From the IMG/VR virus record IMGVR_UViG_2522572164_000007: 42,200 nucleotides of DNA. One strand, given 5' to 3'. The notes below the pieces were generated by a model. It saw only the letters and a list, made by a program, of their open reading frames with translations. It made no database searches and was not told where the DNA came from. A program made the translations under genes and the position numbers. Every line of letters starts with the position of its first letter. Positions within the stretch are counted from its first letter, which is position 1. Origin of the DNA: a virus (Duplodnaviria; Heunggongvirae; Uroviricota; Caudoviricetes). Shown here piece by piece: positions 5,359 to 42,200 of this stretch.

Positions 5359-7416
5359 TTATGCCGCAGGGGTATTAACCTCAAGGACAACGCTCTCAAA
5401 AGACACGCCATAAGTTGCCCCTTTGGTGACATCTGTCAGTGTCAGCGTATCTTTGGCAGGGGAAAGTGCATCTTTCACCATCTGGAATGCCTGGCCCGGA
5501 GTGCCATCCAGCACAGGCGTTACCTGGGCACTTCCCGCCGTAAACTTCAGGACAAGTGTATGCCACTGGTTATTGTAGGCTCCAAATGATCCCAGTTTCG
5601 TATTCCCCCCTGTTTTATGGTGCATCAGATTTAACTGGCCGCCTGTTGTCTGGAGATAATACGCCATCAGGAACGGTGTGCCTGTACCACTCATGGTTAC
5701 ACCTTCCGGGACCGTATCGGTGTGGAGGTAAATACCCAGAGCAAACTGGCCTTCTTTTACTTCACCTGACAGACGGAATTTACAGGTCAACTGACCACCA
5801 TGCTTCAGAAGTTCACCGGCTGCATCAGTTCCATGGGTAAGCGTCCAGGTTTTTCCGCTTTGTTTGGATACGGTCAACGCTTTACCTTCGTCCGTCAGCT
5901 GGATTGTACCATCTGTAATTTTCCAGCCCTGAGCCGGGGCTTCTCCTGCTGATGCTTTAAGTGAAAGCAGCGTACGGAGTGACGGGGATGTCGGATGGGG
6001 GGACTCACTGCCTCCTGGCTGACTACCTGTCGGCGCTTCCGGTTTCCCACCCGGCGCGGGCTGAGGCAGGGCTTCACCATCAGGGGCCACACCGGCAATA
6101 AATGCAGAGGTCAGACCTGCATATTTAAGAATTGCTGATGCAAAACGATCTGAGACCAGAAAACGGCGCGCCCAGGAGCTAAAATGGGTTGCCCTGGATG
6201 CTGTTGTCCAGTTGCCATCTCCCCGTGATTCCGCACCATAATACCCGGCAGAAGCGATATCCGGGTCGTGCTCCGGCAGGTTGGTCGCGGTTTTATTACC
6301 GAACTCATCGTGCATCAGTGGAACAAAGTGAATGTTCTCGGAAGCCCGGTTTTTATATCCGCTATAAATGGTTTCATATGCCGCCGGGTTCTTCTCTTTC
6401 CAGTCATAGGTTGTGTCACCACATAACCACGGCACACTGTCTGATGAACCACCAATACACTGACCGGAGAAAGCACCAAGATCCGCACGGAATTTTTTCA
6501 CCATCGCAGTAAACTGGGCACCATGCTGGGCCGGGGTCGCTTTAAGGTCTCCTTCCCCCTGAATCCATACGACAGATAACAGCACATTCTTTGGATTCGC
6601 CTCAAGTGCCGCTTTAGTTCGACTGACAAGATCCTGATACAGTGGGGTATCCACTCCCCAGCGTAGTGACGCCTCGGCTGCACCACTTGCCGGATCGAAT
6701 GAGCCAACTGCGCCGGTTGTAAAAGCAGAGCCGCCACGGGCACAGGGAACCAGTAAAATCCCGGCATCAGCAGGAATCACCGGTAATACTTTTTTCGCAA
6801 TATGAAGTCCCTGCCCCACACAACCATACTGCCCTTTTTTCAGGTCTGCTTTTGGATGGTTCAGCAGACTCATATTCTGAACATCATGAAGGCAGTGATC
6901 TGCTGGAATGATTTCATTGTATTTGCAGGGAATACCTCCGGGGGTTTGTGTATTCCTGCGTGCCAGCTGCATAATACGTGGATCAGGACGATCATAAGAA
7001 TCCGGAAGGGGCAACCCTTCACCATAAGATGAAGCATTGGACTGGCCGGCTATAACAATCACGTAATACCAGGAAGGGGAGCTGGAAGCCGTTTCATTTC
7101 CTGCCGGACGGGTATGTGTTTCTGCATTATCCCAGTCTGACGGTTCAGCAGTACCGGCAACATCAGCACTTAACGGAATGACAGCACCAATACCCGCTCC
7201 GGTAATTTCCACGTTCGGATCACCGGATACTGGCCTTACCCACAGGCAATCCTGTGTATTAAAACTGATGAGACAGTCAGCAAATGTCATTCCTCCTTTC
7301 GTTTCAGCAGGAGGAAAGGGAGCCTCAAGAAATGCCGCTGTACCACCGGAAACTTTAACGGTAAAGTTTCCGGGCATTGATGATAGTTGAACCCATTTGG
7401 ACGTCATAATATTCAT
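5359..7416 (-). CDS. Sialate O-acetylesterase, NanS-p-like (SGNH hydrolase) with extra N- and C-terminal domains
   Basis: 685-aa ORF with YVIVIAGQSNASSYGEG (GQSN block of SGNH esterases); overall architecture resembles the prophage NanS-p esterases of enterohaemorrhagic E. coli. Confidence 0.7.
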   Translation of the reverse strand: MNIMTSKWVQLSSMPGNFTVKVSGGTAAFLEAPFPPAETKGGMTFADCLISFNTQDCLWVRPVSGDPNVEITGAGIGAVIPLSADVAGTAEPSDWDNAETHTRPAGNETASSSPSWYYVIVIAGQSNASSYGEGLPLPDSYDRPDPRIMQLARRNTQTPGGIPCKYNEIIPADHCLHDVQNMSLLNHPKADLKKGQYGCVGQGLHIAKKVLPVIPADAGILLVPCARGGSAFTTGAVGSFDPASGAAEASLRWGVDTPLYQDLVSRTKAALEANPKNVLLSVVWIQGEGDLKATPAQHGAQFTAMVKKFRADLGAFSGQCIGGSSDSVPWLCGDTTYDWKEKNPAAYETIYSGYKNRASENIHFVPLMHDEFGNKTATNLPEHDPDIASAGYYGAESRGDGNWTTASRATHFSSWARRFLVSDRFASAILKYAGLTSAFIAGVAPDGEALPQPAPGGKPEAPTGSQPGGSESPHPTSPSLRTLLSLKASAGEAPAQGWKITDGTIQLTDEGKALTVSKQSGKTWTLTHGTDAAGELLKHGGQLTCKFRLSGEVKEGQFALGIYLHTDTVPEGVTMSGTGTPFLMAYYLQTTGGQLNLMHHKTGGNTKLGSFGAYNNQWHTLVLKFTAGSAQVTPVLDGTPGQAFQMVKDALSPAKDTLTLTDVTKGATYGVSFESVVLEVNTPAA

Positions 7417-31332: not shown

Positions 31333-31403
31333 TGTTACGCTGTCTCATGATGTTCTCTGAGTCAGCGTAACGGTGAAGGAAAGGCGGCAGGCTTTGCGGA
31401 ATA

Positions 31404-37807: not shown

Positions 37808-38035
37808 TTAGCTGACTTGTTTCGCACCAACAGAACGGCATATTCCGCTGTAAACGTCTGTCGCACCTTCGCGATCAAGTCCGGCAGATATCACCATTCG
37901 TGTGCGGTCATTAAATTCAAAAAGTAAATCGCCACATGCTTTATTTTCGGCCAGTGAAATCACCTTCACGTTATCGAAATTAACCAGGTAAAAGCGTCCG
38001 TAAATATCAGGAATATTAAATACCGCCATAATCAC
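37808..38035 (-). CDS. Hypothetical early protein at the position of Mu kil
   Basis: 75-aa ORF overlapping the end of the MuB-like gene (ATGA); Mu kil occupies this position and size, but identity is not shown by sequence. Confidence 0.4.
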   Translation of the reverse strand: MIMAVFNIPDIYGRFYLVNFDNVKVISLAENKACGDLLFEFNDRTRMVISAGLDREGATDVYSGICRSVGAKQVS

Positions 38036-38964
38036 ACCTGTGAGAGTAATTCAGGGTTGGTATAAACCTCTTTAAAGGCCGCATTAATATGTTTTTCTGT
38101 CAGCGCCGCGCCTTCACCGCTGGCGGTGAGCCACGCCTGGTTAAGCGTATGTGTCAGAACGCGTAATGCTCCCGGCTTTTCAGCGATAGCCTGCATGACG
38201 GCCAGCTCGGCCTCACCACTGATACCCCATGCCCTGGCAATGGCCAGCACATCCGCCTTTTTGGCCTTGCGAAGTTGTTTTGTACGGGCAAGACGGCTGA
38301 ACAGGCGCGATAAATCATCAAAGGCGCGGCGTCCACCTTTAAACAATCCGCGCGGGTTACCAATAAGCACCATCCCGATCCCCGTGGCGTCCTGAATTGC
38401 CCGGAGTTGCTCCAGACCGTCAATACCAAGATGATCCGCCTCATCCACAATCACCAGTCCACGCGTTCCCGTCAGGCGACGGCGGATGGCGCGGGATAAT
38501 GCCCCTTTGTTCGCGCGGGTGTAATCAATCCCCAGCGCATCGGCCAGCTCCAGCAGACACTCCGTGACGCTGGAGTGCGCGGGTGACAGGGTGATCATCC
38601 AGGTGTTTGGTTGCTCCTGGCAGTAATTACGGGCAGTGGCCGTTTTACCCACACCCGGTACGCCCACAATAACGTTAATACAGCCCATCAGGCGAACCGC
38701 CTGAAACAGTGCGCGCAGCTCCTGGACTGTCTGAGTTTCCACAAACTGCGGCGGTTCCGGCAGTGCGCTTTGTTTATTCCAGTTCTCATACCAGGAGCGC
38801 AGGGAAGCAGCCACAGCGGCGTTATCGCCTTTATATTTCCCCTTGCGGAAAGCCGATAATGTGCCGTCGGAAATTCCCGCCTCTCTGGCGATGGCATACT
38901 GCGTCAGCACGCCGCCATCAATAAGTTCATCAATGGTCTTGATTACATCGTTTATATCGGTCAT
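38032..38964 (-). CDS. B: MuB-like AAA+ ATPase (target DNA activator)
   Basis: 310 aa; Walker A GVPGVGKT, Walker B LVIVDEADHL, N-terminal HTH; immediately downstream of the transposase. Confidence 0.85.
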   Translation of the reverse strand: MTDINDVIKTIDELIDGGVLTQYAIAREAGISDGTLSAFRKGKYKGDNAAVAASLRSWYENWNKQSALPEPPQFVETQTVQELRALFQAVRLMGCINVIVGVPGVGKTATARNYCQEQPNTWMITLSPAHSSVTECLLELADALGIDYTRANKGALSRAIRRRLTGTRGLVIVDEADHLGIDGLEQLRAIQDATGIGMVLIGNPRGLFKGGRRAFDDLSRLFSRLARTKQLRKAKKADVLAIARAWGISGEAELAVMQAIAEKPGALRVLTHTLNQAWLTASGEGAALTEKHINAAFKEVYTNPELLSQV

Positions 38965-39039: not shown

Positions 39040-41130
39040 TCAGGCCAGAGGGTCATTTTCTTTTAATTTCGCTTCGAGCAACTGCAATCCCCGCTGGAAA
39101 TTACGCTCGTATTCTTCATCAGGCTCATCATCAACGGCAGGTTGCTGAACGGTCACCGTATTACCCACAGGGCGGTATATGTTTTCCAGCCAGGGCTCCT
39201 GCGGCTTGTGCTCCAGCACGTTGACAACCTCATCCTCGGCATCACGGATTTTTTCCTCTGCGCGTTTACGCATACCTTTAAGGCGTTGCTGCTGTTTGTA
39301 GTATTCCGCGCTGACCGGGAAGGCTTCGCGTTTATTGCCGTCCCATACCGCCTCGCAAATCACGCTGCCATCCGGGCGACGTACGGTAATTCGTTCGGCA
39401 TCATGAATGTCATAGCTGATAAGCACCTTGCGGCCATGCTCATCACTCAGCTCGGGCGCGTAGTAAATATTATTCAGCCAGCGTATTTCACAGCGTCTTA
39501 CAGGGCGTTCCACCATTGGCCGGAACATATCCCGCAGCTCAACATCGGACAGCCATTCAATTTCCGTGTCCTCTTCTGCCAGGCGTTTTTTTCTGAACTC
39601 CGCCGGGCTGTAATGCTTCCCGTTCGGCTTCATGGGTAATTCATCGTGCGGCCGGTTGTTGTACCACTCAACGCCATCACGAATGGCATCAATCAGTTCA
39701 GACCAGGACGGTAAATCACGCATCGCTGACTGTTGCCGGGCGTTCAGCCGTTTGCCCTGTTGCAGGGCGGTAAATGCCGAGCGTAAATCGCGGTTGGTTT
39801 TGCGTAACGTCTCGCGATCTGCACCTTTCCCGAAATAGGTGCGGTATTTACGGGCTATGCGCATCGGTAATGTGCGGTTAAGCCGTTCGATAATGCCTCG
39901 CCCCTGCGGATTACCGGCAATCCCGGTCGGGTGATTAATCCCCAGTCGCGGCAGTATCCCCACAACCTCCTTATCCAGGACGTCGGCGGTTTCCCCGGAG
40001 CCGTTATCCGAGTAATACAGAAACGGTTTGCCGTGATGGCGAATGCCGTGCTGTATGGCACCGGCTACGGCGAAAACATTTTCAGCCAGGTCAAGGCTCC
40101 AGCCCACCACAAAGCGCGTGCCACCGTCGATAACAAAGGTCACTTCCGGTGCAAATGGCCGACCGTGAACCGGGTGTGCGCATTTCAGCTTCATGCCGTG
40201 ACCGTCACCAATCCAGACATAATTCACCGGCATTCTGGACCAGTCGCGGCGCGTGAATCCCTCAAGCTGGCGGTATTCACTGCCGGTCACCCGGCCTTTT
40301 TGTTTCACCACTTCCGGCAGTTTCTTCATTGCGCGGCGGATGGTGTCGTAAGACGGCATGATATCGAGCATATAAGGCTCATCAGCGTGCCGGTGCTGCC
40401 ATTCAGCGACAAAATCCTCGTAAGCCTCGGTCATTGGTCGGCCGTTTGACTGGCGATACTGCGCCAGAAATTCGGGCAGCCAGTTAATATCTTCGGCTTT
40501 TATTTCCTGGCGCTTACCAGGTGCCAGCAAAAGCAGGCGTTCAGCGGCGTTCTGCGCCTTGTTAAAGGCTGCAATCCAGCGTTTCAGCGTGATTTCACTC
40601 AACGCACGGCTGTTTCCCTTTTTGGCGTTCGCCGTCTCAACCATTGCCACAATGCGCTCGTCCAGTTGCGAACGTGCCAGGTTGTCAACGATAAACCGGA
40701 TAGCCTTCGCACAGCTGAAACCAGGTTGTTGCGCGACTTTCAGAACTTCGCTGACGATCGCGATTCGTGCATCAGCCACCTGGCGCTGGTTTTCAGTCAG
40801 GGCATTGAGGCGTTCAACCATCAGTTGTGGTGATCCGCGATATGCCTCCACCGCATCAACCACGGCAGGCGAGCGTCTGGCCTTTGTCACCACCGGAGCC
40901 GGTGATTCATCAGCTTTTTGCGTCATCAGTTGAAGGGCATAACGTTCACGCAATACTTGTTGCGCGCCAGAAGGCAAACAATCGATATTAAATTCGATTG
41001 CTTTTGTCCCCTTACGTTTGCGTAACATGGCTGCATTTCCCGCAGCTGCTTTTGTGAGTCGATGGCGAATGTTATGTTCCATCATTGGTAAATCAGGAAG
41101 ACCAACACATTCTTTTGCTGTTACCCACAT
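39040..41130 (-). CDS. A: MuA-like DDE transposase
   Basis: 696-aa ORF; size and position between ner and B. Confidence 0.85.
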   Translation of the reverse strand: MWVTAKECVGLPDLPMMEHNIRHRLTKAAAGNAAMLRKRKGTKAIEFNIDCLPSGAQQVLRERYALQLMTQKADESPAPVVTKARRSPAVVDAVEAYRGSPQLMVERLNALTENQRQVADARIAIVSEVLKVAQQPGFSCAKAIRFIVDNLARSQLDERIVAMVETANAKKGNSRALSEITLKRWIAAFNKAQNAAERLLLLAPGKRQEIKAEDINWLPEFLAQYRQSNGRPMTEAYEDFVAEWQHRHADEPYMLDIMPSYDTIRRAMKKLPEVVKQKGRVTGSEYRQLEGFTRRDWSRMPVNYVWIGDGHGMKLKCAHPVHGRPFAPEVTFVIDGGTRFVVGWSLDLAENVFAVAGAIQHGIRHHGKPFLYYSDNGSGETADVLDKEVVGILPRLGINHPTGIAGNPQGRGIIERLNRTLPMRIARKYRTYFGKGADRETLRKTNRDLRSAFTALQQGKRLNARQQSAMRDLPSWSELIDAIRDGVEWYNNRPHDELPMKPNGKHYSPAEFRKKRLAEEDTEIEWLSDVELRDMFRPMVERPVRRCEIRWLNNIYYAPELSDEHGRKVLISYDIHDAERITVRRPDGSVICEAVWDGNKREAFPVSAEYYKQQQRLKGMRKRAEEKIRDAEDEVVNVLEHKPQEPWLENIYRPVGNTVTVQQPAVDDEPDEEYERNFQRGLQLLEAKLKENDPLA

Positions 41131-41140
41131 ACATCCCCCA

Positions 41141-41407
41141 TCAAGCCACTTCTCTGGCGTCCACCTGGTATCTGCTGGGCCAGATTACAGCAGGTTCAAC
41201 CCCTATTTTTTCGGCGATGGCGGCTTCGTATTTACGGCACTGGCGGTAAAACACATTGCGCATTGATCCGCTTTTTAATCCTAACTCCCTTTCCAGTTCA
41301 GGGAGGTCTGTGCCTTTGTTTTCAAGGGCTGCATATACCGCTTTAGCAGACCAGTCACACCCCTCTCGAACAAACAAATTATTCGATGCTTGTCTGGATA
41401 CCCTCAT
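41141..41407 (-). CDS. ner: Ner-like DNA-binding regulator
   Basis: 88 aa; C-terminal ...EPAVIWPSRYQ... matches the Mu Ner motif (...KPEVIWPSRYQ). Confidence 0.75.
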   Translation of the reverse strand: MRVSRQASNNLFVREGCDWSAKAVYAALENKGTDLPELERELGLKSGSMRNVFYRQCRKYEAAIAEKIGVEPAVIWPSRYQVDAREVA

Positions 41408-41423
41408 TGTGTGATCCTCTCAT

Positions 41424-41469
41424 GTTTACCTAAACCGATAATCAAAACCGGTTATCGATTTAGGTAAAC
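41424..41469. promoter_or_regulatory. Operator-like dyad between ner and the repressor gene
   Basis: GTTTACCTAAACCGATAA - 10 bp - TTATCGATTTAGGTAAAC; 17 of 18 bases form an inverted repeat. Confidence 0.5.
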
Positions 41470-41558
41470 GATACTCGAACAATAATCCGAGATCAAGCTT
41501 TTTGTTCGGTTTATTGTTTGGTTTTTCTTTTGTGCGTTTTTGTAGGAAAACCATTTTT

Positions 41559-42200
41559 ATGACAAATAGTTATGAAGAAAAAACCGATGTGAAAAGGGAA
41601 AAGTTAGATCGGATTATTAGCCGGAGCACAATAAACCGCTTTGGTGAAAGGCTCAAAGTGGCCATGAAAGGGATGAGTAATGCCGAATTAGCGAGACGAA
41701 GTGGCATGTCCGAAACAACAATAAGGAAATACCTACAGGGAAAGATTTACCCTGCACTTGATAGCCTGGCTATTGTTGCTGACGCTTGCGGGGTATCTCT
41801 GACTTGGCTCGCGACTGGAGAACAACAAGCAAACCAAACAATAGTTCGAGATGATGCTAAACAAAATTATGACAATGAGTATGAATTACTCATTCACTTA
41901 CTTCATAAGCTCAAAAAAGAAGAATGTGTATTACTGGTTGATTTCATATCGCGTGAGGGCGTAAACACCCTTATAAGATTGGTGGCAATGAATGCCTCTA
42001 CGATCAGCCAGGATGCCGTAGAAAGCATCATTGATACGTTACCGTTACGTCCAGTGCTAAAAAATGCAATAAAAGTAGGAATGGCGGGAAGCGAAGACAC
42101 TGACAAAGAGATTTTGCGCGTTATTGAGAAGTACAACTCGAGCAATAACGCCACCCAGGAATCAAGGGCAGTGACAGTAAAGAAAAATGTTGTTGGTTAA
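41559..42200 (+). CDS. Prophage repressor, XRE-family HTH
   Basis: ORF 41502..42200 trimmed to the ATG at 41559 with an AGGAAA RBS; HTH SNAELARRSGMSETTIRKYLQGK; divergent from ner, as Mu c is. Confidence 0.6.
   Translation: MTNSYEEKTDVKREKLDRIISRSTINRFGERLKVAMKGMSNAELARRSGMSETTIRKYLQGKIYPALDSLAIVADACGVSLTWLATGEQQANQTIVRDDAKQNYDNEYELLIHLLHKLKKEECVLLVDFISREGVNTLIRLVAMNASTISQDAVESIIDTLPLRPVLKNAIKVGMAGSEDTDKEILRVIEKYNSSNNATQESRAVTVKKNVVG

Follow-up and report, generated by a model that had tools for sequence, protein, structure and literature searches.

The window analysed here, the whole stretch of 42,200 nucleotides, is a Mu-like transposable prophage of Escherichia coli that is related to the prophages of O157 strains. 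It has a MuA-type DDE transposase, a MuB ATPase and a TG...CA-type end. Three genes lie together on the minus strand: ner (41141–41407), which encodes an 88-residue protein of the Ner family (HTH_35, 73.2 bits against a cut-off of 25, 1.7e-20), then the gene for a Mu-type transposase A (39040–41130; Pfam Mu-transpos_C, 62.5 bits, and HTH_Tnp_Mu_1), and then that for a MuB-type AAA+ transposition protein B (38032–38964; Phage-MuB_C, 88.6 bits). Directly upstream of A and B, ner is therefore the first gene of the early operon. The gene for a repressor of 213 amino acids (41559–42200) runs in the opposite direction on the plus strand, from an ATG at 41559 to a stop codon at 42198–42200, the last bases of the window. 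The space between these divergent genes holds a 46-bp dyad at 41424–41469.

Matches to this region were found in 36 of 5,426 complete genomes, 2 of which match over the full length at 99.6–99.9% identity; a megablast search of a phage collection with 41100–42200 gave no match. The relatives used for comparison come from genomes of E. coli, from searches at the protein level and from genome contigs. In the 99.9%-identical genome and in O157 genomes, the left end of the prophage (...GGTTACA) lies 367 bp past the repressor stop codon. Three GTATCAAA repeats near this end (L001 4286–4440; also in L002) are probably binding sites at which the transposase recognizes the prophage end, and the O157 copy (L002) has an additional 11-bp tandem copy (TTTGAAGATGT) close to the left prophage end. 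The Mu-like prophage of strain Z1835 sits inside a head-completion gene of another prophage, and that of strain 61_150228 adjoins a truncated nucleoside hydrolase gene.

The repressor and how common its type is

A first, sequence-only reading of this DNA had taken the repressor to be of the XRE type and not of the Mu c type, and domain searches bear this out. Residues 36–84 (nucleotides 41664–41810) match HTH_3 (PF01381; 46.8 bits, cut-off 23), the protein also matches Phage_CI_repr (24.3 bits, cut-off 22), and it falls essentially over its full length (residues 3–203) into phrog_3037, 'transcriptional repressor' (1.3e-54). Peptidase_S24 was absent among 13 Pfam families at E ≤ 0.01, and the protein is in this respect not a self-cleaving repressor of the LexA or lambda CI kind. 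We detected no similarity to Mu c (BLASTP, E = 1.5) and no match to PF02316, the family that Mu c (182.7 bits), D108 c (173.3 bits) and the N terminus of MuA (177.2 bits) all matched as positive controls. The kinship between Mu c and the MuA N terminus, which the same reading had mentioned, is thus real, and the N terminus of the transposase in the window (40711–41130) still matches this Mu DNA-binding domain (27.5 bits, cut-off 23.3). A faint central match to the Pfam YfeC-like family occurs in both the window repressor (41559–42200; 25.7 bits) and Mu c (L004 342–929; 23.1 bits; cut-off 22.9); common to repressors with unrelated DNA-binding domains, it may be compositional.

The pairing of this repressor with Ner, A and B had also been read as an unusual mosaic, a view that did not survive comparison. 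A Ner-anchored scan of one genome per species gave 80 loci, and together with reference phages it provided 24 Mu-like loci with a transposase directly downstream of ner. The upstream repressor is of the XRE type in 20 of these, of the c type in one (Mu) and was not detected in three. The usual and widespread layout has an XRE repressor beside Ner, A and B; it is Mu that is exceptional in its type of repressor, which matters when Mu serves as the model for annotating such prophages. Matches to the N-terminal half of the window repressor came from 73 phage records. Most are transposable phages of Pseudomonas, in which the gene bears the annotation 'repressor' or 'CI-like repressor' and is situated ~0.8–1.2 kb from the genome end; the best match (50%) is in Klebsiella phage Kp4866-3. 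Yersinia phages that are classed in Muvirus likewise have an HTH_3 repressor, and their transposase is 79% identical to that of the window. In the Gilliamella loci (L028–L085), an XRE gene and a ner-like gene point away from each other, the next 1.5 kb downstream yielded no transposase, and a lone CCGATAATC half-site lies upstream of ner inside a TTGTAA...TTACAA palindrome; this module may be domesticated or organized differently.

Anatomy of the intergenic region

The dyad agrees in full with its first description: 18-nt arms that match at 17 of 18 positions (GTTTACCTAAACCGATAA at 41424–41441 and TTATCGATTTAGGTAAAC at 41452–41469) flank a 10-nt spacer. No other inverted repeat of this grade (18-nt arms, at most one mismatch, spacer of 0–30 nt) occurs in the 42.2 kb, and 100 dinucleotide-preserving shuffles gave none. 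The 46 bp are composed of four 7-bp half-sites with 6-bp gaps, GTTTACC-N6-GATAATC-N6-GGTTATC-N6-GGTAAAC; one end abuts the putative −10 hexamer of the early promoter and the other stops 16 nt before the ner ATG. The two inner half-sites form a core palindrome (41437–41456), here GATAATC-N6-GGTTATC, which is the single match in the window to GATAAY-N8-RTTATC and is probably the conserved and functional unit. The third half-site, GGTAAAC (41424–41430, minus strand), lies just upstream of the ner ribosome-binding site and reads GRTAAAC in relatives, with TAA invariant in their alignment. The fourth, GTTTACC (41463–41469, minus strand), is promoter-proximal, between the −10 hexamer and the putative transcription start, and occurs as a perfect complement in the E. 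coli lineage only. The dyad is a credible candidate for a protein-binding operator, as had been proposed; it is real and almost certainly functional. Two shorter repeats stand out elsewhere in the window: a 28-bp near-perfect palindrome without a spacer at 7346–7373 (CCGGAAACTTTAAC/GGTAAAGTTTCCGG; 14-nt arms, 1 mismatch), of a kind that is rare in the window and expected 0.09 times per shuffle, and the only other inverted repeat of that quality, at 31334–31371, with 14-nt arms and a 10-nt spacer (TTACGCTG...CAGCGTAA region).

The core palindrome was found at 15 loci, from Escherichia, Klebsiella, Izhakiella, Pluralibacter, Leminorella, Sodalis, Xenorhabdus, Photorhabdus, Aeromonas and Edwardsiella, which share one plan. 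Read towards ner, an inverted repeat brackets a TTGAC-type −35 element, and its ner-proximal half fills the 17-nt promoter spacer; a TAnnnT hexamer comes next, followed by GATAAY-N8-RTTATC, GRTAAAC, the ribosome-binding site and the ner ATG. GATAA and TTATC never change in the 15 loci, and the distance to the downstream ner ATG is always ~29 nt; the 8 nt that separate the two halves vary freely. The 82 nt upstream of ner contain 1.95 GATAAY words on average, compared with 0.14 in the background. By this plan, the early promoter Pe of the window would have its −35 element at 41491–41496 (TTGATC, minus strand; relatives keep TTGAC at the same column) and, 17 nt away, its −10 element at 41468–41473 (TATCGT, minus strand). 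We placed it by alignment to relatives with better hexamers, that is, from conservation: the A at position 2 and the T at position 6 of the TAnnnT hexamer are invariant across the 15 loci. The window hexamers agree with the sigma-70 consensus at 8 of 12 positions only, which is why a consensus scan of 41300–41700 found no promoter. Early transcription would begin near 41461, so that the dyad would extend from about −8 to +38. For the repressor gene, inspection of the plus strand by eye yielded no convincing promoter candidate.

A different repeat surrounds the putative −35 element. The inverted pair AACAATAATCCGA-N15-TCGGTTTATTGTT (41478–41518) is our proposed main operator of the XRE repressor, and three further AAWAAWCCG half-sites, at 41578–41586 (plus strand), 41610–41618 (minus strand) and 41630–41638 (plus strand), are a proposed second operator cluster within the first 27 codons of the repressor gene, where relatives have equivalent copies. 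AAWAAWCCG occurs 7 times in the window, compared with 2.0 expected, and 5 of the 7 fall within 41481–41638 as copies of the longer repeat AAWAAWCCGA. From phage to phage, both arms of the −35 repeat vary together, along with the in-gene copies and the recognition helix of the repressor. Helices that resemble SETTIRKY go with the half-site AAWCCGA (Escherichia, Klebsiella, Izhakiella, Pluralibacter, Leminorella and Sodalis, as well as one Xenorhabdus and one Aeromonas locus with variant helices), SEAALRTY and SDKAIRDY helices with AAACACG (Photorhabdus and Xenorhabdus), and the LPFSTLNNY helix with CAAAAGAAAG (a Yersinia phage, Edwardsiella and Sodalis). Because they track the recognition helix, the −35 and in-gene repeats are the best candidates for repressor operators. 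The GATAA...TTATC palindrome is the same whichever of the three groups a locus belongs to.

A search for additional half-sites beyond the window edge had been suggested. Such half-sites do exist, but inside the window, at 41481–41638; the sequence past the edge, as read in the 99.9%-identical genome, contains no repressor half-sites. That genome, NZ_AP026099 (L001 4164–4203), has an exact GATAATC and an exact GATTATC 7-mer with a 26-nt gap, 63–102 bp past the last base of the window and between the repressor stop and the left end; absent from 14 relatives, this pair is probably due to chance. In an IMG/VR relative with 97% identity, none of the 10 substitutions in 41408–41700 touches the dyad or any of the five repressor half-sites. 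Scanning viral contigs with the repressor returned 3 loci, all of which fit the model, with no reciprocal swaps.

Comparison with O157-type prophages (L002, O157:H7 Z1835) identified a swapped cassette of ~0.5 kb at 41470–41975, with ~50% identity, that contains the N-terminal two-thirds of the repressor and its candidate operators. Identity is 97.8% up to 41469, which covers ner and the dyad, and 91% to the right of 41975, in the repressor C terminus; the C-terminal third of the repressor is common to both alleles. The drop in identity falls exactly at 41469/41470, the edge of the dyad, and the Ner of the O157-type prophage is 100% identical. The dyad thus belongs to the ner block, and it has a single substitution there (45 of 46 bases are the same). 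Half-sites that resemble AAWAAWCCG are present in both alleles, and the recognition helices (SETTIRKY and SEATVRNY) are similar.

What may bind the dyad

We consider it rather probable that the dyad is a Ner operator laid over the start of the early promoter and that the XRE repressor acts on the separate AAWAAWCCGA repeats. The repressor would occupy the inverted pair around the Pe −35 element (41478–41518) and the three in-gene copies (41578–41638) and so shut off transcription of ner, A and B, with cooperative binding or looping as possibilities. Just downstream of the putative −10 hexamer and over the presumed start, the dyad would serve Ner, the first product of the early transcript. Ner monomers would bind the GATAAYC-type half-sites, the orientation of which alternates every 13 bp, and would thereby turn down Pe and any transcription that crosses towards the repressor gene. 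In Mu and D108, Ner turns down the early promoter and transcription in the direction of the repressor. We infer the position of the promoter, the pairing of each protein with its sites and the regulatory outcome from the sequence patterns described above.

The dyad was originally assigned to the XRE repressor, a dimer or tetramer of which would then block early transcription. The position between divergent genes suits such an operator, long palindromes are typical for helix-turn-helix dimers, and the dyad is found nowhere without an XRE repressor of this family at the same locus. Every palindrome locus carries both Ner and a repressor of these families, however, so that presence and absence alone cannot separate the two proteins. 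What argues against the repressor is that the core stays constant over three recognition-helix groups while the −35 repeat changes with the helices. In the O157 comparison, the DNA-binding half of the repressor has fallen to ~50–55% nucleotide identity, whereas the dyad has kept 45 of 46 bases and travels with an identical Ner. In Vibrio, the loci L020 and L046 combine a repressor of this XRE family with a divergent Ner and lack the GATAA palindrome. The assignment to the repressor is therefore probably wrong, and we regard it as unlikely.

The comparison of Ner proteins gives a mixed picture. The palindrome is constant across Ners that are 45–100% identical (45–59% among those of the palindrome loci) and is absent with more divergent Ners (Mu, D108, L018, L020 and L046). 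The Ners of Photorhabdus and Xenorhabdus are closer to Mu Ner (60%), yet the Mu repeat differs. A search for a recognition-helix code in Ner gave no clean result: all palindrome-positive Ners have Arg or Lys at position 50, but so do the negatives L017, L027 and L046, and L027 has a helix pattern like that of the positives with no GATAA palindrome. A palindrome that holds constant while all of the phage regulators diverge, in hosts that are all Gammaproteobacteria, might instead be the site of a host protein (Fur-like or another global regulator) or, as a transposition enhancer, of the N-terminal domain of the transposase, which has kept its Mu-type DNA-binding domain alongside a repressor that is not homologous to it. 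The Fur box is a 19-bp site with GATAAT hexamers as its units, and the hexamer is therefore suggestive of Fur, but the GATAAT-N8-ATTATC spacing does not fit such a box (~11 of 19 positions by hand alignment). Against a host factor in general, chromosomal ner-like genes of the same hosts lack the motif (0.23 GATAAY words per upstream window, compared with 1.95). The transposases of palindrome loci are ~25% identical, compared with 45–59% for Ner, and the transposition enhancer of Mu coincides with the repressor operators and not with the Ner site, both of which weigh against the transposase. We judge a host or transposase site to be about as improbable as a repressor operator.

The dyad could also act as an RNA stem-loop at the 5′ end of the ner-A-B mRNA, with or without protein binding, and could stabilize the transcript or mask the ribosome-binding site. 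The transcribed strand folds at −23.7 kcal/mol (z = −3.9; 0 of 200 shuffles fold as well), 76.6% of cells pair in the 15-locus alignment compared with 27–46% after the partners are shifted, and in the flanks several pairs have changed on either side. The five core pairs, however, never vary in the 15 loci, a pattern of sequence conservation and not of compensatory change; with a start near 41461 the promoter-proximal outer arm would be untranscribed; and no hairpin of the relatives includes the conserved third half-site, GRTAAAC. We consider a role in RNA unlikely as well. A terminator was rejected, as the dyad has no U-tract.

Known systems and what the arrangement may mean

The Ner of the window matches the solved structures of Mu Ner (1ner, 8.2e-8) and of EnrR (7f9h, 6.5e-7), belongs to phrog_769 and conserves the IWPSRY motif together with N51 and R55. 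It is 37.5% identical to Mu Ner, from which it differs by a 17-residue N-terminal extension. Mu has CTAAGT-N6-ACTTAG at 1035–1052, inside imperfect 18-nt arms at 1023–1064 and within the stretch 991–1101 that its record annotates as the Ner binding region; D108 has a perfect repeat, CCGTGAGCTAC-N8-GTAGCTCACGG, at 996–1025, 24 nt before ner. We take these inverted repeats before ner to be the Ner operators of Mu and D108. Each resembles the core of the window dyad in sequence geometry and position, as an inverted repeat with a 6–8-bp spacer that is placed between ner and the early promoter and covers the start of early transcription (putative in the window), and ner is the first gene of an early ner-A-B operon. 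The half-sites differ (GATAAYC in the window, TARCTAAGT in Mu and CCGTGAGCTAC in D108), as does their number, with four half-sites at 13-bp spacing in the window and two boxes in Mu and D108.

EnrR of Edwardsiella belongs to the same family as the window Ner and aligns residue for residue with it, and the N-terminal extensions of the two proteins are similarly long. A monomer, EnrR binds to an AT-rich palindrome (AATAAATNATTTATT) and touches DNA with its N-terminal extension; of its top two ChIP peaks, one is found upstream of the gene for EnrR itself (PMC9023278). Among the residues that contact bases in EnrR, Arg55 is kept in the window Ner and Arg47 is replaced by Gly47. Unlike the phage protein, EnrR is a chromosomal, global nucleoid-associated regulator with a short continuous site.

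Other Mu-like phages with CI/XRE-type repressors (Pseudomonas D3112/B3-like phages, Kp4866-3, Yersinia vB_YpM and Vibrio Mu-like phages) resemble the window in having an XRE-type repressor near the left end that is transcribed leftward, divergent from the early operon, as has been described for B3/Fc02 (PMC9936078). Identity to the N-terminal half of the window repressor ranges from 36% (Pseudomonas) to 50% (Kp4866-3), and the window repressor has no match to a Pfam LexA-type peptidase. Kp4866-3 shares its operator repeat, promoter and GATAA palindrome with the window, and relative to these phages the extended 46-bp symmetry is confined to the E. coli lineage. Like the O1–O3 operators of Mu c, the candidate operators of the window come in several copies over ~160 bp beside the repressor gene and, as measured in the 99.9%-identical genome, roughly 0.9–1.1 kb from the left end of the prophage; unlike those of Mu c, some copies lie inside the repressor coding sequence. 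The repressors themselves are of different fold families, PF02316 for Mu c and HTH_3 for the window, and the homology between repressor and transposase N terminus that lies behind the operator/enhancer overlap of Mu is therefore absent here. A transposition enhancer, if there is one, can thus not be predicted from repressor homology as it can in Mu.

In Mu, repressor and transposase compete for the same operator/enhancer sites. A broader possibility, which we put forward tentatively, is that alternating GATAAYC half-sites every 13 bp represent an undescribed class of Ner operator, which remains fixed while a ~0.5-kb repressor/operator cassette is swapped beside it, and that the competition rule of Mu does not apply in most Mu-like phages, as their repressor is unrelated to the transposase N-terminal domain. 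Such an operator class would be widely conserved in transposable prophages of Enterobacterales and Aeromonas, and the cassette would comprise the DNA-binding half of the repressor and its own operators, exchanged as a unit between phages. The GATAAYC motif and the swap that it bounds appear to be undescribed in the searchable literature, although both are of kinds that are already known. Both the kind of repressor and the order of the genes are ordinary among Mu-like prophages, and no new kind of system is revealed. The analysis provides a testable map of the switch, with candidate sites for the repressor and for Ner and a candidate place for the early promoter, that applies to a family of Mu-like prophages of E. 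coli (O157:H7 among them) and of many related genera.
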